Notes under the pieces: model-generated
The model's database searches: none
Told to the model about the DNA's origin: nothing
What the model saw: the letters and a program-made list of their open reading frames with translations, nothing else
Assembly (NCBI GenBank): GCA_034667725.1
Contig: JAXDQS010000010.1
Location: 352,001 to 416,000 of the forward strand
DNA length: 64,000 nt
Source of the DNA: Thermoplasmata archaeon
GTDB taxonomy: Archaea; Thermoplasmatota; E2; JACPAO01; JAHFTW01
Direction: 5' to 3'
Translations under genes and position numbers: made by a program
In this document: positions 5,681 through 64,000 of the stretch, in pieces
Layout of the letters: every line of letters starts with the position of its first letter
Numbering within the stretch: the stretch's first letter is position 1

Positions 5681-6385
5681 ATGCGCGTCACCATCCTCAT
5701 CCCCACCCTCAACGAGGAGGCCGGCATCGGGCCCACGCTGGACCTGGTGGACCGGCAGGCCTTCGCCCAACGGGGATGGGACCTGGAGCTCCTGGTGGTG
5801 GACGGCAACTCAAGGGACCGCACCCGCGCCGAGGCCGAGGCCCGCGGCGCCCGCGTCGTGGTGGAGCCCCGCCGCGGCTACGGCCTCGCCTACAAGCGCG
5901 GCTTCGCCGTCGCCACCGGCGACTGGATCGTCACGGGCGACGCCGACTGCACCTACCCGCTCGACCGCGCCCACCTGCTGGTGGAGGAGGCCATCGAGCG
6001 CGGCCTCGACTTCGCCTCCTGCGACCGCTACGCCACGCTCCAGCCCGGCGCCATGAGCGCCAAGCACCGCTTCGGCAACTTCGTGCTCTCCGTCACAGCA
6101 CGCACCTTGTTCTTCGTCCGCCTCAACGACTCCCAGAGCGGCATGTGGATCCTCCGCCGCGCCGCCCTGGCAAGCGTCCCCTACGAGAAGTTCAGTGATG
6201 GCATGGCCTTCAGCCAGGAGATCAAGATCGACGCCTTCAAGCGGTTCCGCGGCCGCGCCGTCGAGCTGCCGGGCGAGCTGCGGCCCAGGATCGGGACGCC
6301 GGTGCTGCAATCGTACCGCGACGGGCTGCGGAACCTGCGGCTGCTGTTCGCACGGCGCGTGAACGGGAAGTGGCGGAAGGCCTAA
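5681..6385 (+). CDS. GT2 family polyprenol-phosphate glycosyltransferase-like protein
   Basis: IPTLNEE, VDGNSRDRT, RRGYG, DADCTY, DSQSGM motifs. Confidence 0.88.
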   Translation: MRVTILIPTLNEEAGIGPTLDLVDRQAFAQRGWDLELLVVDGNSRDRTRAEAEARGARVVVEPRRGYGLAYKRGFAVATGDWIVTGDADCTYPLDRAHLLVEEAIERGLDFASCDRYATLQPGAMSAKHRFGNFVLSVTARTLFFVRLNDSQSGMWILRRAALASVPYEKFSDGMAFSQEIKIDAFKRFRGRAVELPGELRPRIGTPVLQSYRDGLRNLRLLFARRVNGKWRKA

Positions 6386-6951
6386 GGCTCCGGCAACTCC
6401 GCCGGCCGCAGCGCCTCGAGGTCCGTGCCCACCTCGGCGCACAGCTCGTCATGCAGGCGGCGAATCTTGAGCCAGGCGTGCGGGAGCCCCTTCGCCTGGT
6501 ACTTGGTCTCCAGTTGCGCGAGGGTCAGCCGGCGGTCGCCGCTGTGGAGGTTGTCGGCGTGCGCCACGATGCGCTCCTCCAGGCTGCGCGGCGTGTAGTC
6601 GCCGTCGGGCAGGCCCAGCTGCTTGGCCTCGGCGCGGTCGATGCCGGCGCCGGTATGCCGCTCGACGGCGAGCACGGTGCGCGGGTCCCATTGGCCGTCG
6701 GCGCGCAGCAGGCCGGCGCCGACGGTGGCGTGGTGGATGCCTTGGGTGACGCTGCGGCCGATGTCGTGCAGCAGCGCGCCGGCCTGGACGACGTCGCGCT
6801 CGACCACGAGGCCGTTGCGCTCGGCGGCGTCGGCCATGGCGGCGGCCAGCGCCTCGACGGCGCGGCAGTGGGCCAGCACCCAGGGCGGCGGGGCCGCGGC
6901 CTGGAGGCGGCGCCAGGCCTCACTGCGCGATCTGGGGGAAGTGGGGCGCAA
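6382..6951 (-). CDS. HD-domain phosphohydrolase (TIGR00295-like)
   Basis: H...GALLHDIGR, HHA, ERH.GAG, EERIVAHADNL; directly downstream of tfe. Confidence 0.85.
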   Translation of the reverse strand: MRPTSPRSRSEAWRRLQAAAPPPWVLAHCRAVEALAAAMADAAERNGLVVERDVVQAGALLHDIGRSVTQGIHHATVGAGLLRADGQWDPRTVLAVERHTGAGIDRAEAKQLGLPDGDYTPRSLEERIVAHADNLHSGDRRLTLAQLETKYQAKGLPHAWLKIRRLHDELCAEVGTDLEALRPAELPEP

Positions 6952-7459
6952 GCTCCTCGATGCGCTCCTGGAGGGCCTGCTTGAGCTGGTTGGTGCGGAC
7001 GGCCTCCATCGGCTCGTTGCAGGCGGGGCAGATGAACTGGAGGTCGATGGCGTCCTCGAACAGGATGCGCCGGTGCTGCGACTTGCAGGCGTAGAACTGG
7101 TGGTCCTCCTCGAACTTGAGCTGCTTGCGGAGGTTCAGCAGCTCGTCGGCCCAGCGGCGGCGCAGGATGAACTTGACCTCGTTGAGGTCCAGGTCCCACA
7201 GGAAGGTCTCCCAGCCCTTGGAGTCGGTGTCCTTGGCGTACTCGGCGACGTGCGCCTCCATCATGCGGTAGAGCACCTTGCGCACGGCGCTCGGCTTCTG
7301 CTCCTTGAAGTGGTCCACGATGTCCACGCCGGAGATGTGCGGGTGGTCTTGCAGGAAGTGGGCCAGGCTCATGCCCTCCTCGCCGACCTCCTCGCGGATG
7401 TAGGCCTGGATTTCAGGGTCTTCCAGGGTCGGTTCCCAGTCGTCGTCGCGAACGGTCAT
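6920..7459 (-). CDS. tfe: Transcription initiation factor E (TFE alpha)
   Basis: Winged helix VRKVLYRM, KGWETFLW, coiled coil, Zn ribbon FYAC...H...FICPAC. Confidence 0.9.
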   Translation of the reverse strand: MTVRDDDWEPTLEDPEIQAYIREEVGEEGMSLAHFLQDHPHISGVDIVDHFKEQKPSAVRKVLYRMMEAHVAEYAKDTDSKGWETFLWDLDLNEVKFILRRRWADELLNLRKQLKFEEDHQFYACKSQHRRILFEDAIDLQFICPACNEPMEAVRTNQLKQALQERIEELAPHFPQIAQ

Positions 7460-7502
7460 CAGGTGCGGGCCCAGAAGCGCGCCGGGTCGGGATAACCGTT
7501 TC

Positions 7503-8066
7503 TCACTCCTCGGAGTCGTCGGGGGCCGCCATTGCCGCGCCATCCGCGGCAACCACCCGTTTGCCGTGGGCGGTGGGGACCACCCTGAGCTTGGCGCCGG
7601 GGAACGCGTCGTGCTCCCATGCCCCGCCGCGCAGCCGGTCGAGCAGGAGGGCCAAGGCCGCCACTTCGCTGTGCGGCTGCGACCCGACGGCGACGTTGGC
7701 GTCAGCCATCTGGTAGAGGTCGCCGGGCACCTTCTCGGCGCCGACGACCACCAGCACGTCGCGGCCGTCGGCCAGCACCCGGGGCGCGGCCTCCGACAAG
7801 GGCGTGCCGTACATCGTGAGGTGGACGACCTGGCCGCCGGCCTTCTGCCACGCCGCGACGGCGCCCTTCCAGCCGCCGCCCGACTCGCACGTGAAGCCGC
7901 CGCCGAAGCGGGCGGCCACGGCGTTGACGGTCTGCACGACGCCCATGTCCTCCTCCGCGATGCGGACGCGGGCGGCGCCCAGCGCGCGGGCGGTGAGGGC
8001 GACGTGGGTGGTGATGCGCTTGTCGCGGGCGGGGCGGTGGCCGAGCCGGAGCACCTCGACCCTCAT
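7503..8066 (-). CDS. trm56: tRNA (cytidine56-2'-O)-methyltransferase
   Basis: LRLGHRPARDKRITTHVALTARALGA, VHLTMYG, VGAEKVP, QPHSEVAAL. Confidence 0.95.
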   Translation of the reverse strand: MRVEVLRLGHRPARDKRITTHVALTARALGAARVRIAEEDMGVVQTVNAVAARFGGGFTCESGGGWKGAVAAWQKAGGQVVHLTMYGTPLSEAAPRVLADGRDVLVVVGAEKVPGDLYQMADANVAVGSQPHSEVAALALLLDRLRGGAWEHDAFPGAKLRVVPTAHGKRVVAADGAAMAAPDDSEE

Positions 8067-8731
8067 GGCGCACCCAGGTGGACGGTGACCTCGAGGCGGT
8101 CGCCGTCCTTGCACGGCAGGGCGTCGCGCAGGCGGACGGGGGCGATGAGCTCCAGCGTCGTGGTGTAGTGGCTGCGGTGCGGCAGGATGGTGGCGCACGC
8201 CAATTCGCCGACCGTGGCAGGGTGGCAGGTGACGCCGCCGAAGGTGCGCCCCTCCGCCTGGAAGCCCTCGATGGTGTGGACCGGGTTCCTCCTGAGGTAT
8301 CGGAGCTTGTTGGCCTCTGCGCCGGACAATTCCAGGTTGAGGGTGCCGGGGTAGGGGACCCAGCCGAGGCGGGCCTCGAACTGGCTGACGTAGCCGGGGC
8401 GCGACAGGTAGTAGCGGCCCTCGCCGAGGCCGCCCTTGACGTGGCCGGCAAGCGTCACGCGGTCCTGCGCCTCGAACAGGCGACGGTAGACCAGATGCTC
8501 GGCGCGCAGCAGCTCGCGGCCGGGCTCGGTGATGCGGATGCGTTGGCGCCGGATGCCCATCTCGCGCGTCACGAGGCCGGCGTCGGTGAGCTCGATGAGG
8601 CGGCGGCTTGCCGTCTGCTGCGACAGCCCAAGGAGGGCCGCGAAGTCGCCGGAGGCGAGCTCGACGGCGTCGTCGAGGGCGCCCAGCAGGGCCAGCTGCT
8701 TGAGGGCCTCCACGTCGCTCGGCCGGGTCAC
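8063..8731 (-). CDS. ribK: CTP-dependent riboflavin kinase with N-terminal HTH (RbkR type)
   Basis: SQQTASRRL HTH; GGLGEGRYY, PYPGTLNL, ELIAPVRLR. Confidence 0.93.
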   Translation of the reverse strand: MTRPSDVEALKQLALLGALDDAVELASGDFAALLGLSQQTASRRLIELTDAGLVTREMGIRRQRIRITEPGRELLRAEHLVYRRLFEAQDRVTLAGHVKGGLGEGRYYLSRPGYVSQFEARLGWVPYPGTLNLELSGAEANKLRYLRRNPVHTIEGFQAEGRTFGGVTCHPATVGELACATILPHRSHYTTTLELIAPVRLRDALPCKDGDRLEVTVHLGAP

Positions 8732-39751: not shown

Positions 39752-40455
39752 AGGCCTGGTGGCTGCCGCCCGTCGCCGTCGGGCTGCTGGCCGCCACGGG
39801 CGCATGGGCCTTCGACGCGCTGGTGCAGGAGCCCGCGCCCCCGCCTGCGGAAGGCATCCCCGTGCGGTTCCCGTTCCTGGACGGGCCGGCCATCCCGTGC
39901 GCCGCCGACGGGCAGGCGTGCGACCGGGACACGACCGTGCTCGCGGTGCGCGGCGGCCGCACGACCGCGCAGGACGTCCGCGACGCCACCTGGCGGGGCC
40001 GCGCCACGGGGCCGACGCCCGTCCTGCCGTCGGAGGCCGAGGTCGACTGGCTCGACGGCGGCGTCGGCCGGCTCCGGCTCCAGGAGGGCCTGTGCTGCGA
40101 CCACGCCGGCCCGAACGTGGCGCGGCCCGCCCTGCCCGCCAACCGCACCTCCGCCACGCTGACGTTCTACGCCTTCCTGGGCGACGGCCGGCTCCAGGCC
40201 ACCAACGCCAACGCCACCGCGGCCGGGCGCTTCGAGCCGGCCAGCGACCTCCTGCAGGCCGAGGCGCGCACGTTCGCCCTGGCGCCGGGCGCGCCCGGCG
40301 CCGCGCTGCCCGCCTTCGTGGACAAGGCGATGCCGGACCTGCGCGGCCGGCTGCGGACCCTTCCCGTGGGCGGAATCGCCACCTACCTCCTGGAGCAGCA
40401 CGACTACCAGGACCTGTTCGGGCCGCTCTACGTCACCCTGCGCGTCGAGGCCTAA
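39748..40455 (+). CDS. Hypothetical exported/membrane-anchored protein
   Basis: N-terminal hydrophobic segment; ATGA coupling to the upstream gene. Confidence 0.6.
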   Translation: MKAWWLPPVAVGLLAATGAWAFDALVQEPAPPPAEGIPVRFPFLDGPAIPCAADGQACDRDTTVLAVRGGRTTAQDVRDATWRGRATGPTPVLPSEAEVDWLDGGVGRLRLQEGLCCDHAGPNVARPALPANRTSATLTFYAFLGDGRLQATNANATAAGRFEPASDLLQAEARTFALAPGAPGAALPAFVDKAMPDLRGRLRTLPVGGIATYLLEQHDYQDLFGPLYVTLRVEA

Positions 40456-40486
40456 GCTTCAAGCCCGCCTCCCCCTCGGCGCCCCC

Positions 40487-41740
40487 GTGGCCCAGAAGAC
40501 GGTCAAGGCCCTGCCGGGCGCCCCGCGCAGCCTCCAGATCGAGTACGCCATCCGCGACGTCGTCGTGCCCGCCCGCGCGCTCGAGGCCGCCGGCCACACG
40601 GTGCTGAAGCTCAACATCGGCGACCCGTGCGCCTACGGCTTCCGCCCGCCCCAGCACATGGTCGACGCCTTGGCGAAGGCCGCGCAGGACAACGTCAACG
40701 GCTACACCGCCAGCGAAGGCGACCCTCGCCTCGTGGACGCCATCGTGCGCCGCGAGAAGCGCCGCAACGGCGTCGACTACGCCCCCGGCGACGTGGTGGT
40801 CACCACCGGCGTCTCCGAGTCGCTCCAGATGCTCCTGGGCGCAAGCGTCAACCCGGGCGACGAGGTGCTCATCCCCGGCCCGAGCTACCCGCCCTACGAC
40901 TCGCTCGTGAAGTACTTCGGCGGCACCCCGGTCCACTACCGCACCGTCGAGGCCGAGGAGTGGCAGCCGGACGTCGACGACCTGCGGAAGAAGATCACGC
41001 CGCGCACCAAGCTCGTCTGCCTCATCAACCCGAACAACCCCACGGGCGCCCTCTACTCCCGCCGCGTCGTGCAGGACTTCGCGGACGTCGTCGGCGAGCA
41101 CCAGGACCAACTGATGATGGTCTCGGACGAGATCTACGACCAGATGACCTTCGACGGCGTCCAGGTCGCAAGCAAGACAGTGGCCCCCGACGTCCCGATG
41201 GCGACCCTCAACGGCTTCAGCAAGGTCTACCTCGTCCCCGGCTGGCGCCTCGGCCACATCCTATGGAACGACCCGACCGGCTCGCTGTCGCAGATCCGCG
41301 AAGGCGTCACCCGGGCCAGCCGCGTCCGCCTGTGCGCCTCCAGCATCGCCCAGCGCGCCGCCGTGGCCGCCCTCGACGGCCCCCAGGACCACATCGCCCA
41401 GACCAACGCCGCGCTGCGGATCCGCCGCGACTTCGCCGTCCGCCGCCTCAACGAGATCGACGGCCTCTCCTGCGCCAAGCCCGACGGCGCGTTCTACGCC
41501 TTCCCGCGCATCGACGCGCTGGACACCCCCAAAGGACGCAAGGCGTGGAAGGACGACAAGGAGTTCGTGCTCGACTTCCTCCGGACCGAGAAGGTCCTCA
41601 CCGTCCACGGCTCCGGCTTCGACAAGGAATACGGCGCGAACCACTTCCGCGTCGTCATCCTGCCCGACATCCCTATCTTGGAGACCGCCTTCGATCGCCT
41701 GGAAAGCTACATGGCGCGCAAGCTCAAGGGGGACGCATGA
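40487..41740 (+). CDS. Class I/II PLP aminotransferase (AlaA-like)
   Basis: YAIRD, KLNIGDP, INPNNPTG, SDEIYD, NGFSKVY..PGWRLG. Confidence 0.92.
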   Translation: MAQKTVKALPGAPRSLQIEYAIRDVVVPARALEAAGHTVLKLNIGDPCAYGFRPPQHMVDALAKAAQDNVNGYTASEGDPRLVDAIVRREKRRNGVDYAPGDVVVTTGVSESLQMLLGASVNPGDEVLIPGPSYPPYDSLVKYFGGTPVHYRTVEAEEWQPDVDDLRKKITPRTKLVCLINPNNPTGALYSRRVVQDFADVVGEHQDQLMMVSDEIYDQMTFDGVQVASKTVAPDVPMATLNGFSKVYLVPGWRLGHILWNDPTGSLSQIREGVTRASRVRLCASSIAQRAAVAALDGPQDHIAQTNAALRIRRDFAVRRLNEIDGLSCAKPDGAFYAFPRIDALDTPKGRKAWKDDKEFVLDFLRTEKVLTVHGSGFDKEYGANHFRVVILPDIPILETAFDRLESYMARKLKGDA

Positions 41741-42519
41741 GGCCGGCCCTGCCCCTGGTCGCGGTCGCGGCCCTGCTGCTCTCCGGCTGCTTCGCGCCCG
41801 CCCCGGGCCGCATCGCCGCCGGCGACGAGGTCCAGGTCCGCGTCACCGGGCAAGCCCTCGACGGCACCACGCTTGCCCCCGAGACGACCGTCACCATCAC
41901 CAACGACACCACCCAGCCCGGCCCCCTCGTCGCCCGGCTGCGGCAAGAGCTGGCGGGCCACAGCCTCGGCCAGACCTTCAGCTTCACCGTCGCCGGCAGC
42001 GAATACCCCGGCCGCCAAGCGGTCGCGCGCCGCCTCGCCCCATTGGCGCTGGAGCGCGCCTACAGCGCCGAGTCGTTCTCCGACGACGAGCGCCAAGTCG
42101 GCCACGTCCTCCAGGAGACACCCTTCAAGGTCCACGTCGTCGCCGTCACCAACGCCACCGTCACCCTGCGCTCCGAGATCGCCAACGGTCTCCGGGAACC
42201 GCTGCCCCAATACGGCCTCGACCTGGTGTACGAGGTCAACGGCAACTTCGCGACCCCCGTCCTGGAGCCCAAGCCCGGCGCCACCTTCCGCATCACGCCC
42301 GACGACCACAACTTCGAGCCCGGCGCCTACCGCGTCCTCGGCATCCAAGGCGACAAGGCCGTGTTCGAGCACAACCCGTTCCCCGACCAGACCGTCCGCT
42401 ACACCGTCAAGATCCTCGGCGGCGGGTCGGGCGTCGCCACCGACGGCAACTACATCGCGCGCACCACGCCCGCCCTGGCGAACGCGACCGCGGACGACGG
42501 GCACGACCACGTCCACTGA
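41737..42519 (+). CDS. Lipoprotein with degenerate FKBP/SlyD-like fold and short His/Asp tail
   Basis: LLLSG-C lipobox; IAAGDEVQV..TG...DG, EL.G...GQTFSFTV, HNP...TVRYTVKI; ends DDGHDHVH. Confidence 0.6.
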   Translation: MRPALPLVAVAALLLSGCFAPAPGRIAAGDEVQVRVTGQALDGTTLAPETTVTITNDTTQPGPLVARLRQELAGHSLGQTFSFTVAGSEYPGRQAVARRLAPLALERAYSAESFSDDERQVGHVLQETPFKVHVVAVTNATVTLRSEIANGLREPLPQYGLDLVYEVNGNFATPVLEPKPGATFRITPDDHNFEPGAYRVLGIQGDKAVFEHNPFPDQTVRYTVKILGGGSGVATDGNYIARTTPALANATADDGHDHVH

Positions 42520-42530
42520 GCCCACGTTCC

Positions 42531-42822
42531 CGCCGACTGGACACAGATTCCACAGGGTTCTGTGGGAATCTTCCGAATCTGGGAAAATCAGTGCCCGTCG
42601 CGAGCGCCGACTGGACATAGGTTCCACAGGGTTCTGTGGGAATCTTCCGAATCTGAGTGAATCGGTGCTCGTCGCGGCCGATTGGACACAGATTCCACAG
42701 ACCATGGCCTTGGAGTTGGCGGGGCCTAGGAACAGAATTCCACAGATGGTCTGTGGGAATCTTCAGAATCTGAGGGAATCCGTGCTCGTCACGCGGCCGC
42801 CGGCTGGACACAGGTTCCACAG
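42531..42822. repeat. Degenerate tandem repeat (~71-74 bp unit, three near-full and two half copies) with palindromic core TTCCACAG-N4/5-CTGTGGGAA
   Basis: Units begin at about 42531, 42605, 42676 (half), 42723 and 42798 (half). Confidence 0.9.
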
Positions 42823-42843
42823 AGTGCTCTCTGCCTCCCAATA

Positions 42844-43028
42844 GCCTCCTGCGTCGGCCAGCGGTCGTCCCTCCGCTTCGCGTTCGGGGCGGAGCCGATT
42901 CCTTCTGCGTGGACGCCCCAGCTCGCTGCGCTCGCTGGGGGCAGTCACTTGAAACGAATCGTCTCCGCCTCCCACTGGCCTCCTGCGTCGGCCAGCGGTC
43001 GTCCCTCCGCTTCGCGTTCGGGGCGGAG
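42844..43028. repeat. Exact 51-bp direct repeat (42844-42894 and 42978-43028)
   Basis: gcctcctgcgtcggccagcggtcgtccctccgcttcgcgttcggggcggag occurs twice, 134 bp apart. Confidence 0.95.
42945..42968 (-). repeat. Duplicate of the last 24 nt of aCPSF1 (AETIRFK-stop)
   Basis: 21/24 identical to 43054-43077; all three differences are at third codon positions. Confidence 0.85.
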
Positions 43029-43053
43029 ACCCTCGGTTCCCCGTTCGCTTCGC

Positions 43054-44973
43054 TCACTTGAACCGGATGGTCTCCGCGTTCTGCATCGCCCTGGCCTCGA
43101 TGCCGAACTTGGCCGTGATCGACTCCGCCAGGTCGATGCACTTCGACGCCTCGCCGTGGCCGGTGAGCACCAGCTTCGGCATGGGCTCCATGTTCTGGAT
43201 GAAGTTCATGAGCTGGCGGCGGTCGCAGTGGCCGCTGAAGCCGTCGATGGTCTCGACCGCCAGTTCGACGCGGACGTTGGTGGTGCCGCCCTTCTCCTGG
43301 AGCGGCATCTCGCGGTAGCCGCGCTGGAGCTTGCGGCCGAGGCTGCCCTCCGCGTTGAAGCCGACGAAGCAGAGCACGTTGCGCGCGTCGTCCGCCCAGT
43401 GCTTCATGTACTCCAGCACGGGGCCGCCGGTCATCATGCCGGAGGTCGCAAGCACGATGCAGGGGTCGGGGTCGCCGCAGATCCGCTGCCGCATCTCGTG
43501 GGAGTCGACGCGCTTAAACATCGGCGCCAGCAGCGGGTTGTCGTTCTGCTGGAAGATGCGCTTCTTGAGCTCCTCGTTGAGGTACTCGGGGTAGCAAGTA
43601 TGGAGCGCGGTGGCTTCCCAGATCATGCCGTCGAGGTAGACCGGCTGCTTGGGGATGGCGCCGGTGCGCATCAGCTCCTCCAGCACCAACATGACCTCTT
43701 GGCTGCGGCCGACGGCGAACACCGGGAAGATGGCCTTGCCCTTCCGCTCCGCGCAGGCTTGGAGGACCTTCTTGGTCTGCTCGGCGGCCTCGACGCGGGC
43801 GGGCTGGAGGTTGTCCTTGCCGCCGTAGGTGGACTCCACGATGACGGCGTCGAGGCGGGGAAACTTGTTGTGCGCCGGGTTGAACAGCCAGCTGCGCTCG
43901 TACTTGATGTCGCCCGAGAACGCCACGTTGTAGAGCCCGTCGCCGACGTGGAAGTGGCACACCGACGAACCCAGGATGTGGCCCGCGTCGTGGAAGGTGA
44001 GGCGGATATCGGGGCTGATGTCCGTGGTCTCGCCCCAGTCCACCGCGATGGTGTTCCGCAGCGCCGCCCGCACGTGCTCGGCGTCGAACGGCTTCGGCTT
44101 GCCCTGCGCCTCCGCCACCCGGATGTAGTCCATCGTGAGAAGCGCCATGATGTCGCGTGTCGGCGGCGTGCAGTAGACCGGGCCATCGTAGCCGTACTTG
44201 AACAGCAGCGGGACCAGGCCGCAATGGTCGAGGTGGCCGTGGGTCAGCACTACCGCGTCGAGGCTCGTGAACGGCTGCACCTCGCCCAGGTGGAACATCG
44301 GGGTCGCCGGGTCGTTCTCCTCGAACTTGACGCCACAGTCGACGAGGACCTTCGAGTCCTGCGTCTGCAGCATCGAGCAGGAGCGGCCGACCTCGCGCCA
44401 CGCCCCCAGCGCCGTCATGCGGACCCAGCGCTCGGCCTCGGGGGGCGCGGCGCTGCGGTGCATCCGCCGGCCGACGCGGCGCAGGAACTTGCGGCGCTCG
44501 TCCGCGACCGTGCGCAGGTACTCGCGCACCTCGCGCACGGTGCGGCTCGGGATGGGCGGCGTCCGCACCACCTTCGGGTTCCAGCCGACCTCGGCGCGGA
44601 TGCGGTTCAAGGTCGAGCCCTGCGCGCCGATGGCGACCCCCGGCCGCTGCGCCTCGATGGTGACCTCGCCGATGGCGGCGGCCCAGGAGAGGTCCGTGAC
44701 GCCCGCGTTCTCCGGCACGATGGCCTTGATGCGCTGCGCCGCCTCCTCCGGCGGCATCAGGACGGACGGGTCCGGCCGGACGGCGACGCGCTTCTGGAGC
44801 CCGCGGGCCAGCTTGCGGATGAGCTCGCCGTCGGCCGCGAACGCCTGCGGCGTCTTGGTGTAGAGGACCAGCTCGTGCGCCTCGAAGTCCAGATCGGTGA
44901 CGTCGACGCCGCGCGGCAGGATCCGGTCCGCCTGAGCGCGCATCTCCCGCAGGAGGTCTTCGACGTTGGCCAT
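43054..44973 (-). CDS. beta-CASP ribonuclease aCPSF1/FttA (KH + MBL + beta-CASP)
   Basis: RPGVAIG KH motif, EVGRSC, THGHLDHCG, AGHILGSS, FAVGRSQE, FSGHCDR. Confidence 0.96.
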   Translation of the reverse strand: MANVEDLLREMRAQADRILPRGVDVTDLDFEAHELVLYTKTPQAFAADGELIRKLARGLQKRVAVRPDPSVLMPPEEAAQRIKAIVPENAGVTDLSWAAAIGEVTIEAQRPGVAIGAQGSTLNRIRAEVGWNPKVVRTPPIPSRTVREVREYLRTVADERRKFLRRVGRRMHRSAAPPEAERWVRMTALGAWREVGRSCSMLQTQDSKVLVDCGVKFEENDPATPMFHLGEVQPFTSLDAVVLTHGHLDHCGLVPLLFKYGYDGPVYCTPPTRDIMALLTMDYIRVAEAQGKPKPFDAEHVRAALRNTIAVDWGETTDISPDIRLTFHDAGHILGSSVCHFHVGDGLYNVAFSGDIKYERSWLFNPAHNKFPRLDAVIVESTYGGKDNLQPARVEAAEQTKKVLQACAERKGKAIFPVFAVGRSQEVMLVLEELMRTGAIPKQPVYLDGMIWEATALHTCYPEYLNEELKKRIFQQNDNPLLAPMFKRVDSHEMRQRICGDPDPCIVLATSGMMTGGPVLEYMKHWADDARNVLCFVGFNAEGSLGRKLQRGYREMPLQEKGGTTNVRVELAVETIDGFSGHCDRRQLMNFIQNMEPMPKLVLTGHGEASKCIDLAESITAKFGIEARAMQNAETIRFK

Positions 44974-45034
44974 GGGACACCGAGAAAGAACTGGGGAGAA
45001 GGGAGGGGAAGGGAGGAAGAGGACGGAGCGCGGG

Positions 45035-45787
45035 TCAGTCGTTCCAGCTCGCCGGCAGCTTGAGCGCCTTGTGCCGCTTCAGCACTTCCTCGTCCGTCAG
45101 CCGGCGGAAGCCGTTGCCGTCGATGATGGCGATGTCCATGCCGTTGCCGGAGGCGGAGTCGCGGCGCATGCTGGCGTTCAACGCACGGATGGCGAGGTCG
45201 ACCCCTTCCTTGACGGACAGGTCGTTGCCGATGCGGTCCTCCAGCACGCCGAACGCATACGGGGAGCCGGAGCCGGTGACGGTCCAGTTCTCCTGGATGG
45301 CGCCGCCGGCGGCGTCCACCGAGTAGATGCTGCCGCCCTTGTCGTCGTAGCCGCCGACGATGAGCTGCACCCAGTAGGGCGCGAAGCGGGAGGCGTTGAG
45401 GATGTTGCCAAGCAGCGTGGAGGCGCCGCGCACGGGCATGGGGGCGTCGCGCTTGAAGCGGTAGAGCTGCGCCTGGGCCTGGAGGTGGCGGGCGATCATC
45501 TGGGCGTCGCCGACCAGGCCGGCCGTGGTGAGGGCCAGGTGGCGGTCGACGGGGAACAGCTTCTGGGTGTGCTTGTGGCCGATGAGGTGGCCCATGGTGG
45601 CGCGGCGCTCGGTGGCCATGACGACGCCGTCGGGGCCGGCGATGGCGAGCGTGGTGGTGCCGGTCTTGGCGGCGGGGGCGCCGGAGGGGCCTTGGGCGGG
45701 CAGGGTCGGCAGGGGCAGGCGGGCCTCGTGCGCAGGGGCAAGGCCGTGGGACAGGTCGGAACCAAAGGTGAAGTCGGAGCGCGCCAT
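45035..45787 (-). CDS. psmB: Proteasome subunit beta with propeptide
   Basis: KTG/TTT processing site, ERRATMG, AGLVGDAQ, TGSGSPYA.GVLE, RDSASG. Confidence 0.96.
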   Translation of the reverse strand: MARSDFTFGSDLSHGLAPAHEARLPLPTLPAQGPSGAPAAKTGTTTLAIAGPDGVVMATERRATMGHLIGHKHTQKLFPVDRHLALTTAGLVGDAQMIARHLQAQAQLYRFKRDAPMPVRGASTLLGNILNASRFAPYWVQLIVGGYDDKGGSIYSVDAAGGAIQENWTVTGSGSPYAFGVLEDRIGNDLSVKEGVDLAIRALNASMRRDSASGNGMDIAIIDGNGFRRLTDEEVLKRHKALKLPASWND

Positions 45788-45893
45788 GAGAAAGGCTCCC
45801 CGCGGGCCGCGGGCGCCGTTGCATGGACCTGCGGGTTATGAACGCTGGGAGCCGACGCGCAAGCCTCAAGCCCGCCCGGGAGTCGCCGCCGCC

Positions 45894-46697
45894 GTGCAGG
45901 TCGTCGCCATCCTGGTCGGGCCGCAGCATCCCGGCAACGTGGGGGCGGCGGCGCGGGCGGCGGCCAACTTCGGGGTGGCGGACCTGCGCTTCGTGGCGCC
46001 CGAGTGCGACGTGCGGGCCAAGGAGGCCTACGACCGGGCCATCCACGCCAAGGATTTGCTCGACAACGCGCGGACGTTCCCCGACCTCAAGTCGGCGCTG
46101 GAGGGCGTGTCGTTGTCGATCGGCACGACGGCCCGCAAGGCGCTGGCGGCCAACCACTTCCTCCGCAAGCCGTCAGACATCCGCGACGCGATGGCGGAGC
46201 TGGCCGGCTGGGACGGCACGCTGGCCTGGGTGTTCGGGCGCGAGGACGCGGGGCTGACCGGGCCGGAGGTGGACCTGCTGGATCAACTCGTCACCATCCC
46301 CACCTCCGAGTATTGGAGCCTCAACCTCAGCCACGCCGTCGGGATCTGCTGCTACGAGTCGTTCCGCCTCCAGTCCCAGAGCATCACGCCCGAGCGCACG
46401 CTGGCCCCCGGCGCGCTCGTGGCGATGAACGAGGCCTGGGACGCCATCGTCCATGAGGCGGAGGACCGTGAGTGGCGCAAGCGGGTCGCGTCGGGCGTGT
46501 GGCGCAAGGTCGTCGGCCGCAGCCGCCCCGACACCTTCGAGGTGCACAACATCATGGGCATCCTCGCCAACACCCTCAAGCGGTTCGGGCACCCGGACTA
46601 CAAGTCGGCGGCCAGCGACCTCCGGCTCGGCCAGGAGGGCAAGCTCATCGCGGGCAAGGCGGCACGAGGGCAAGGAAAAGGCGGGGAAGAGGAGTAG
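45894..46697 (+). CDS. SPOUT RNA methyltransferase, TrmJ family
   Basis: PQHPGNVGAAARAAANFG, GTTAR, VFGREDAGL, SLNLSHAV. Confidence 0.9.
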   Translation: MQVVAILVGPQHPGNVGAAARAAANFGVADLRFVAPECDVRAKEAYDRAIHAKDLLDNARTFPDLKSALEGVSLSIGTTARKALAANHFLRKPSDIRDAMAELAGWDGTLAWVFGREDAGLTGPEVDLLDQLVTIPTSEYWSLNLSHAVGICCYESFRLQSQSITPERTLAPGALVAMNEAWDAIVHEAEDREWRKRVASGVWRKVVGRSRPDTFEVHNIMGILANTLKRFGHPDYKSAASDLRLGQEGKLIAGKAARGQGKGGEEE

Positions 46698-63139: not shown

Positions 63140-64000
63140 TCAGGGCTCCGGCACCCCGAACTTCCCCGCCAGCCGCGAGCCCTTCGGCCACCCGCCGGAC
63201 TGGGCAGGGTCCTCGATCCCGGGCCGGATCGAGCCCGTGGGGCACACGTCGAAGCAGGCGCCGTCGGCGATGCACAAGTCGCGGTCGACGCGCGCCATGT
63301 CGGTGACGATGGCGGCGTCGGTCGGGCACGCCGCCTGGCAGCCGTTGCACACGATGCAGTCGGCCGCGAGCACCCAGGCCTTCTTCGTCTCCGGGACCTT
63401 CGCCGCGAACGCCTTCACGGCCTGCACGTCCTTCGGGTTGCCCGTGAACTTGCCGCCGACCTCCTCGGGCGCGATCGCCTTCGCGCCGGGCTGGGTGGCG
63501 GGCGTCGGCGGCGCCTGCGTCGCGGCGGGCGCCTTGGTCTCCTTGACGGTGACCACCGGCGCCGCGGGGGCGGGCGCGGCCGGCGTCGGCATCGGGGTCG
63601 GCGCGGGCGGGCCCTGCACCGGCACGGCCGGCTTCGCGACGGCCGGCGCCGGCGCCGCGGCCTTGGCGCCCGACTTGGCGGCGCGCTCCGCGGCCGCCTG
63701 CCGGTCGGCGTCCAAGGTGTCCTTGGTCGGGACCATCCACTTGGCGCCCTTCAGGCTGCGCGCCTTGGCTTCGCGGATGAGGGCGTCGACGTGGCCCTTC
63801 CAGTCGCCGACGATGCCGAGGTCAGCGTAGCTGAAGATGGGCGCGTTCGGGTCGGAGTTGATGGCGAGGATGGTGCCCGATTCCTTCATGCCCTCGATGT
63901 GCTGGATGGCGCCGCTGATGCCCACCGCGATGTACAGCTTGGGGCGGACGCTGACGCCGGTCTGGCCGACTTGGCGGCTGCGCTCGATCCAGCCCTTGTC
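63140..64000 (-). CDS. etfA: Electron transfer flavoprotein alpha subunit with C-terminal 2[4Fe-4S] ferredoxin; 5'-truncated by window edge
   Basis: [41 protein letters not shown]; Pro/Ala linker; [12 protein letters not shown] and [12 protein letters not shown]. Confidence 0.9.

Follow-up and report, generated by a model that had tools for sequence, protein, structure and literature searches.

The window analysed here is a stretch of 64,000 nucleotides (nt), part of contig C10 of a metagenome-assembled genome (MAG) of a Thermoplasmata archaeon (2.32 Mb, 26 contigs, 71% G+C, 90% complete); the public runs that contain its sequence are soil metagenomes. It encodes aCPSF1/FttA, an RNA-cleaving termination factor of 639 amino acids (aa), on the minus strand (43054..44973 in the open reading frame (ORF) list), with the Pfam domains KH_TffA, Lactamase_B, Beta-Casp and RMMBL. 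Directly behind the stop codon of this gene lie two stacked, gene-less units, with a second copy of the gene's last codons standing between them. Gene-end cassettes, as we call such units, are found in this Thermoplasmatota lineage immediately after stop codons and after the 3' ends of tRNAs.

Along the minus strand, the working terminus of aCPSF1 (T1, 43077-43054, GCGGAGACCATCCGGTTCAAGTGA) has the codons GCG GAG ACC ATC CGG TTC AAG TGA, which encode AETIRFK and the stop, and forms the 5' arm of a first hairpin. It is followed by a 25-nt variable piece (v1, 43029..43053) made up of a loop module and the partner arm of T1, the loop AGTGAGCGAAGCGAACGG being formed by v1 together with the final bases of T1. 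Then come the first copy of a 51-nt block (43028-42978), which closes hairpin 1 with its first 6 nt and contains the cassette motif CCGAACGCGAAGCGGAGG, and the linker CAG TGGGAG (42969..42977). The spare terminus (T2, 42968-42945, GCGGAGACGATTCGTTTCAAGTGA) begins 109 nt downstream of the start of T1, encodes AETIRFK and a stop with the codons GCG GAG ACG ATT CGT TTC AAG TGA, and is the 5' arm of hairpin 2. Its own variable piece (v2, 42895..42944; 50 nt, and not 49 nt as given in an earlier note on this DNA) holds an inner hairpin with the loop GAGCGCAGCGAG and the T2 partner arm GAATCGG. The second copy of the 51-nt block (42894-42844) and the linker TAT TGGGAG (42835..42843) complete the stack. 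The two units measure 85 and 110 nt and contain no ORF, and no alignment of v1 with v2 is possible. Behind each block stand 3 variable bases and TGGGAGGC. The repeat that includes the block covers 67 nt (96% identical) and recurs at an interval of 134 nt. Short strings are shared at the junctions: AGTGA is common to the gene end and the loop module, and GGAG stands ahead of T2.

T1 and T2 are identical at 21 of 24 bases, both stops are TGA, and the three differences (ACC/ACG, ATC/ATT and CGG/CGT) are all silent, just as the earlier note, made from the letters alone, had described. At aCPSF1 by itself this silent-only pattern is weakly significant (about 0.025, by hand arithmetic); it becomes convincing through the genome-wide pattern reported below. 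The identical block that the note placed after each gene end is equally real: the 51 nt match exactly, none of 100 shuffles produced such a match, and each copy is accompanied by a hairpin. There are exactly two copies, both at aCPSF1. On the best reading of the locus, the upstream terminus completes aCPSF1, and the downstream copy, which is not translated, is a spare or a former end.

Each aCPSF1 terminus supplies the 5' arm of a separate hairpin, whose loop contains or adjoins the stop codon. The hairpin of T1 (43077-43023) folds at -29.8 kcal/mol (z -5.0) and that of T2 (42968-42889) at -43.7 kcal/mol (z -4.0), and the fold of the whole 271-nt region has z = -4.9. Similar structures were found in three relatives that are treated below: T1 and T2 of G022 fold at -31.7 kcal/mol (z -2.9) and -28.5 kcal/mol (z -4.3), T1 of G046 at -23.8 kcal/mol (z -5.3) and T1 of G045 at -20.6 kcal/mol (z -3.8); a third terminus in G022 (-19.5 kcal/mol, z +0.4) has no significant fold. 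In the six folding units, the partner arm tracks the silent changes at terminus positions 9, 13 and 15 (third-codon positions).

A possible truncated start of a third terminus (GCAGAGAGC, 42834-42826, part of the 67-nt repeat) follows the second linker. The earlier note had taken it for a decayed copy; the bases are present, but only 7 of 9 agree with the terminus, they run into the edge of the neighbouring repeat array, and the junction of an adjoining 74-nt unit fits about equally well (6 of 8, by eye), which leaves the feature ambiguous.

Second gene ends across the genome

The arrangement at aCPSF1 recurs at many other genes. The 400 nt downstream of 3649 long ORFs were scanned for the final 7 residues and their stop occurring a second time. 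Peptide matching (7 of 8 identical) identified 25 second ends at 24 genes, with 1 in the controls, and a codon-blind comparison (last 30 nt, at least 22 identical) identified 41, with 2 and 2 in the controls. Curation by eye reduced these 41 to 21 loci; it removed two real neighbour-gene pairs, frames that were antisense or of low complexity, and a few pairs no longer in register. The same scan gave 3 second ends in 400 kb of a same-genus genome (G006; controls 0 and 0) and 4 in 400 kb of a genome of another family with 30% G+C (G039; controls 4 and 2). Cassettes were identified at tRNA 3' ends as well. The earlier note had proposed an element specific for the aCPSF1 site, a claim that does not survive: the same structure is present at two dozen or more further ends of protein genes, as well as at tRNA ends, and in each case it is the local terminus that is duplicated. 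Nor is the duplication the constant core expected of an attachment (att) site, as its length varies from 21 to 91 nt over the curated loci.

Mismatches between working and spare ends in the 21 loci number 17, 14 and 70 at codon positions 1, 2 and 3. Sixty-two of the differing codons are silent and 23 replace a residue (8 of these at a single indel-bearing locus, C1, 298244), where random substitution predicts 25% silent. Under a more realistic null, in which an unconstrained copy changes at all sites, about 60% replacements would be expected, far from the 27% observed (hand arithmetic). Every spare end has a stop in register (21 of 21), the same stop codon in 15 cases and a different one in 6. 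The G+C content of third codon positions (GC3) stands at 0.89 for the working and 0.88 for the spare ends, and the silent differences are symmetric (17 vs 15). Since the spare ends are not poorer in G+C at third positions, old and new ends cannot be told apart by the direction of change, and we dropped direction as a criterion.

The aCPSF1 stack shares the characters of these loci: an insert at or just after the stop, followed by a second set of last codons with its stop; differences that are silent in 3 of 3 cases, with the stop kept; and gene-less sequence built from the common GCGAAGC- or GCGCAGC-loop modules. Its extra terminus behaves as a real gene end, formerly or potentially working, and the earlier note's claim of coding selection on both copies is upheld to that extent. 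Either the differences arose while both copies worked, or the spares were filtered by selection.

The inserts are 31-263 nt long (by estimated borders), lack ORFs and consist of G+C-rich hairpins tipped GCGAAGC or GCGCAGC, in modules that recur across the loci of the genome. One form of about 105 nt occurs in 5 full copies with a common four-hairpin fold, in which 9 of 34 pairs show compensating double changes. The 51-nt block overlaps with this form only in the second hairpin motif CCGAACGCGAAGCGGAGG, which is also found in 8 other cassettes; the rest of the block is private to the aCPSF1 locus. The v2 hairpin has an 86% match to a cassette at C2:110116-110148. Its loop GAGCGCAGCGAG and the v1 loop are both common to other loci, and the v1 loop AGTGAGCGAAGCGAACGG also tops a hairpin in the tRNA-Gly cassette stack and one in genome G019. 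The GAA-loop strand is the sense strand of the host gene in all 7 module-C cassettes with a known host gene.

The earlier note had looked to copies of the 51-nt block beyond this site. The block is absent elsewhere in the 2.32-Mb genome, as is a second copy of the 250-nt region, and neither a 23-nt piece of the block nor a degenerate pattern of the form of about 105 nt has a match in the GTDB genome collection (own genome excluded); thus, the cassette sequences are species-specific. The note's argument that an exact 51-nt match means a recent event is unsafe, because identical cassette blocks also occur at different loci with diverged copies of the gene end; the identity can therefore be due to conservation or to gene conversion. 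A conserved loop with locus-specific stems was considered as the definition of a general family and rejected, the loop motif having only 7 matches (at most 1 mismatch) in the genome.

In young cases, the identical copies extend a few bases beyond the stop. Two cassettes of this genome (G000) at different genes, C2 110109 and C9 (minus 20347), are about 97% identical by eye, and just after the host stop at C2 110109 a few bases apparently equal the C9 gene end (GGCAGTGA). These shared bases hint that cassettes may be copied between loci together with some flank.

No recombinase, transposase or nuclease family was identified in the 48 of 99 candidate window ORFs that were scanned (the longer, non-overlapping ones), consistent with the note's remark that the window has no recombinase. 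The ORFs downstream of aCPSF1 in G022 and G045 gave none either, and the larger integrase-bearing element that the note had envisaged at this position was not seen there. In the whole MAG, TnpB/Cas12f-like proteins (PF07282) had no match over the cut-off and the Y1 HUH transposase (PF01797) had 0 matches. One tyrosine recombinase match (PF00589) lies exactly at the cut-off, and one GIY-YIG match lies inside a 945-aa frame. We dropped, as a working idea, that the spare end is the 3' guide of a TnpB/Cas12-like nuclease, given no PF07282 match over the cut-off and no motif conserved beside the duplication border in 23 loci. Nor do the cassettes look like miniature inverted-repeat transposable elements or other derivatives of classical transposons, which have terminal inverted repeats and a short duplication of fixed length: the duplications here are long and variable, no border motif is conserved, and a partner transposase was not found in the two families searched, TnpB and Y1. 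The region also has no match to a known RNA family or a tRNA fragment: the only Rfam row is a chance-level mir-146 (E = 2.1) in the neighbouring repeat array, and no tRNA was identified within 40000-46000.

This neighbouring array (42528..42830, minus strand) consists of about four palindromic units of 72-74 nt (CTGTGGAA...TTCCCACAG) and abuts the stack. The units belong to a separate family of dispersed repeats, which has dozens of matching places spread over seven contigs of this genome, and a copy also adjoins two or more further gene-end cassettes (among them C3 minus 115800 and C10 plus 187722, flanks read by eye). The stop codon of a convergent ORF (42517..42519, plus strand, from the ORF list) bounds the intergenic region. 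It apparently ends a protein of about 260 aa with a lipoprotein-like N-terminus (41737-42519, plus strand), inside a longer, spurious ORF (40627-42519) without a Pfam match.

Relatives and population variants

The relatives are distant, at 76-87% identity in the 3' part of aCPSF1. All 12 same-genus genomes encode the gene, with matches that end at the gene end, and none of the 12 has the 51-nt block or a second aCPSF1 end. Across the family, aCPSF1 was seen in 20 of 32 genomes. The exception is genus g11, to which G022, G045 and G046 belong. G022 carries three intact AETVRFC-stop ends, with spares that start 59 and 133 nt past the stop; these differ from its T1 by 9 bases, all silent, and the second end differs from the working end of G016 by 2 bases. 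The G022 MAG (4.2 Mb, 590 contigs) has two aCPSF1 copies (G022:C335 and G022:C153, 96.4% identical over 993 nt, one contig breaking within the gene), which are probably two strains in one bin. In an order-level relative, G026, masking (a run of N) begins roughly 90 nt beyond the end of aCPSF1 and blocks reading further downstream.

G045 and G046 each have one working end and a decayed second end without a stop. Identity between the two is 79-94% per 100 nt over aCPSF1, rises to 95-99% some 40 nt beyond the stop and stays at that level as far as the contig runs. This jump places a recombination breakpoint at the cassette. Upstream of aCPSF1, the contigs (L134, G046:C123 at 5688-8175, and L135, G045:C249) cannot be aligned.

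Among metagenome aCPSF1 loci with at least 150 nt downstream, a second end was found at 1 of 78. This locus, L090, is from a distant A+T-rich archaeon (54% identity), and 214 nt beyond the stop of its gene begins a second LETIRLR-stop that has 2 silent changes and uses a different stop codon. Unlike the G+C hairpin type, this insert is A+T-rich, and the contig stops 97 nt past the second copy. The sole close metagenome relative, L054, has no cassette.

Population variants were sought on contigs of 4 public runs rather than on reads, which establishes that a variant exists and not how frequent it is. Run X1, which holds 74% of the sampled words, has a 285-nt contig that joins 42843 to 42978 and so skips exactly 134 nt, with the break placeable at any point of the 51-nt repeat, a one-unit form. 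A 111-nt contig of run X3 has a T1-like end and a v1-like piece (6 differences), with the end of a 51-nt block and a linker upstream in gene orientation; thus, a T1-type unit lies downstream in that population. None of the 4 runs has contig cover of 42876-42943, and the two-unit order is known from the MAG assembly alone. The RNA run X24 has no contig over the cassettes.

These comparisons bear out two of the earlier note's expectations. Repeated events at the site are seen in the two-unit stack here, the three ends of G022 and the decayed relics of G045 and G046, and presence/absence variation in the 0 of 12 same-genus genomes with the cassette and the one-unit form in run X1. On misassembly, which the note had wished to exclude by mapping, the contigs answer in part: the X3 contig confirms a block-to-terminus junction, but the MAG's order of two units has no independent support.

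Variation within the genus is also seen at the gene ending in KGGKISLGF-stop (G000:C2, stop at 63836), which has three ends in this genome. Of the 11 genus genomes with the gene, 5 (G000, G007, G008, G011 and G012) carry extra ends that are intact, one or two in each. By eye, a decayed copy is also present in G002 and G007 and only a hairpin in G004 and G005, with nothing in G001, G006 and G009. All 7 extra ends share the variable fourth residue (S, T, K or Q) of their own genome, with silent differences from the own working end at up to 5 of 7 codons. An alternation of silent versions (AAG ATT and AAA ATC) in these stacks, with adjacent copies differing in 6 of 7 pairs, is not relied upon (sign test, about 0.06). 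Both versions avoid GATC, which is under-represented (ratio 0.63). The gene ending in LTIVTRQ has a second end in 0 of 9 other genus genomes. For the AAGLGALFG-stop end, an acidic tail that we take to be typical of ribosomal stalk proteins, a second copy starts 82 nt after the stop in G006; a pair about 290 nt apart in this genome (G000:C4 13090) resembles two neighbouring genes.

Origin of the cassettes

The reading that we prefer, at a probability of about 0.5, is that behind aCPSF1 two members of a genome-wide family are stacked, the family being one of gene-less, end-duplicating hairpin cassettes that is kept by host recombination or repair. A cassette would be made or copied by host replication or repair, likely through template switching or break repair. 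DNA hairpins with GNA loops, of the very stable GCGAAGC type, may nucleate the event; tips of this type are exceptionally stable mini-hairpins, which makes fold-back priming or template switching plausible. Joining would occur at short microhomologies such as AGTGA and GGAG, possibly with help from an unrecognised factor in trans. The stack could then grow, shrink and be reshuffled via recombination between repeated blocks and between gene-end copies, and recombination within the genome and with relatives may repeatedly put the spare end into service or overwrite it with a working allele. Recycling of spare ends in this way would account for the mostly silent differences and the kept stops. 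That recombination is active is demonstrated by the deletion form in X1, the junction in X3 and the G045/G046 breakpoint, and this favours reuse or overwriting of spare ends. Variable duplication length, many targets, enzyme-less modules and identical bases past the stop argue against an integrase-type element and against a classical transposon, and they fit host replication or repair.

Several points weigh against this reading. A template-switch origin, a rate of exchange between gene-end copies and selection through recombination are inferred from the pattern. The locus-private part of the 51-nt block is identical beside diverged termini, which simple in-place duplication does not predict, so that gene conversion or a recent partial event is needed. 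Different genes carry near-identical inserts between gene-end copies that are up to 18% divergent, a combination that fits neither a simple young-insertion clock nor a model in which the end is carried with the insert. The constraint on spare ends is not absolute (23 of 85 differing codons are replacing), and the mildest null, in which half of the changes are neutral, gives only P = 0.03 for the silent excess. At only 3 of 20 loci is the terminus a better partner for the insert beside it than for any of the other 19. Thus, the hairpin architecture of aCPSF1 is a subtype, and an inverted terminus copy in every cassette was rejected as a rule. Finally, with a MAG that is 90% complete, an enzyme could be missing or belong to an unknown family.

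Among the alternatives, we consider it unlikely that the cassettes behave like WHO elements, the homing elements at FBA1 of Torulaspora and Lachancea yeasts, for which such a model with its arms race has been described (PMC7282813; bioRxiv 10.64898/2026.08.13.744650). Under such a scheme, a cassette would bring a re-spelled, nuclease-resistant end and use the old end as the second homology arm; repeated invasions would stack, and an arms race would recode silently. The model explains stacks and recoding elegantly. It agrees with the order of new end, insert and old end in stacks of up to three, with silent-only differences that include rare codons and stop-codon swaps, with decayed copies that are always distal and with the breakpoint at the G045/G046 cassette. 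However, no nuclease gene or family was identified in or near the cassettes, the 85- and 110-nt units have no ORF that could encode an endonuclease, and the genome has no TnpB match over the cut-off, no HUH match and a sole GIY-YIG match, in the 945-aa frame. The same modules occur at many genes, and one module cannot carry the right end of each. The extra ends share the variable residue of their own genome, contrary to import from other species, and the young identical copies include bases beyond the stop.

Very doubtful is a reduced form of this idea, in which the cassettes are minimal, gene-less archaeal homing elements made up of a re-spelled immune end, a folded scaffold transcribed together with the host gene, and the old end as an address for a nuclease or recombinase acting in trans. 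As an address (guide or homology arm), the old end would be kept intact, and an arms race would lead to silent recoding of the ends of essential genes, aCPSF1 among them.

The earlier note's own interpretation, a recombinase-bearing element or island that targeted the aCPSF1 3' end and collapsed to att-like flanks, now seems improbable. It draws on the independent duplication of aCPSF1 ends in three lineages (the window, genus g11 and L090), on the segment of 95-99% identity in G045 and G046 that begins at the gene end, and on the involvement of tRNA 3' ends, as with classical integrases. Against it stand at least two dozen targets in one genome with duplications of 21-91 nt instead of a single target with a fixed att core, units of only 85-110 nt built from common hairpin modules, and the absence of a recombinase from the 48 window ORFs and from the ORFs downstream in G022 and G045, with one borderline tyrosine recombinase genome-wide. 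What remains of the interpretation is the duplicated, functional-looking gene end; the aCPSF1-specific integrative element does not.

Similarly improbable are functional stem-loops in the 3' untranslated region of the aCPSF1 mRNA (for termination, stability or autoregulation) that were duplicated in tandem, with the spare terminus serving as a stem arm only. The strong hairpin at each terminus, with its stop in or beside the loop and compensating changes, and the common orientation of cassettes and host genes would suit such a role. A stem arm, however, need not retain codons, a stop or a GC3 of 0.88, the phenomenon extends to unrelated genes and tRNAs, no Rfam family matches, and the stack is absent from all 12 same-genus genomes. 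An assembly artefact that joined alternative strain alleles in series is the least probable explanation: the exact 51-nt repeat is a classic spot for an assembly loop, the sole X1 contig across the site has one unit and 42876-42943 is uncovered in 4 runs, but T2 is preceded by a block end and linker and not by gene sequence, so that a block-to-terminus junction must exist in the reads, X3 independently holds such a junction, and stacks with intact ends occur in other MAGs and at other genes.

If this picture of the cassettes holds, an entire lineage of archaea puts up with, and may even make use of, tiny inserts without enzymes of their own exactly at gene ends, that of the essential aCPSF1 included, and the gene is preserved because the insert duplicates its final codons. 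Spare ends resemble coding sequence though they are untranslated, and an explanation would expose either an unrecognised selective force, namely recombination that repeatedly brings spare ends into service, or an unknown homing machinery. In practice, duplicated gene ends lead gene callers and assemblers astray; they also mark the junctions of recombination between species and provide natural markers of strain history.

Comparison with known systems

Integrase-type elements occupy the 3' ends of tRNA and protein genes, and their derivatives include gene-less, att-flanked forms; they use one recombinase and one fixed att core. The cassettes resemble them in duplicating a 3' end so that the gene stays intact, in their occurrence at tRNA ends and in possible tandem accretion. 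They differ in having many targets, a variable duplication and common hairpin modules, in a genome with a single borderline tyrosine recombinase. REP/REPIN sequences (repetitive extragenic palindromes, with their RAYT transposases) and the MJRE of Methanocaldococcus jannaschii are dispersed, hairpin-forming, gene-less intergenic repeats behind genes. To our knowledge, REPs do not duplicate gene ends, and this genome has no match to a Y1/HUH (RAYT-like) gene of the kind that accompanies them. In the literature covered, which did not extend to subscription journals, we found no account of archaeal gene-less cassettes with silently diverged gene-end duplicates.

WHO elements share with the cassettes the formation, by repeated events, of clusters with several old ends, and a working end that differs without harm to the protein (PMC7282813). 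Unlike the cassettes, they are kilobases long, encode their own endonuclease and have essentially one target gene (PMC7282813). The cassettes are 31-263 nt long and gene-less and are found at dozens of genes and tRNAs.

The YPAL/RU-2 elements of Yersinia are described as small, gene-less and not A+T-rich, with internal inverted repeats and with variable target duplications of 3-26 bp at or beside dyad symmetries (PMC2229807). The cassettes share these traits, variable duplications included. They are distinguished by being archaeal and by duplications of 21-91 nt, which always include a stop codon or a tRNA end and which diverge mostly silently.

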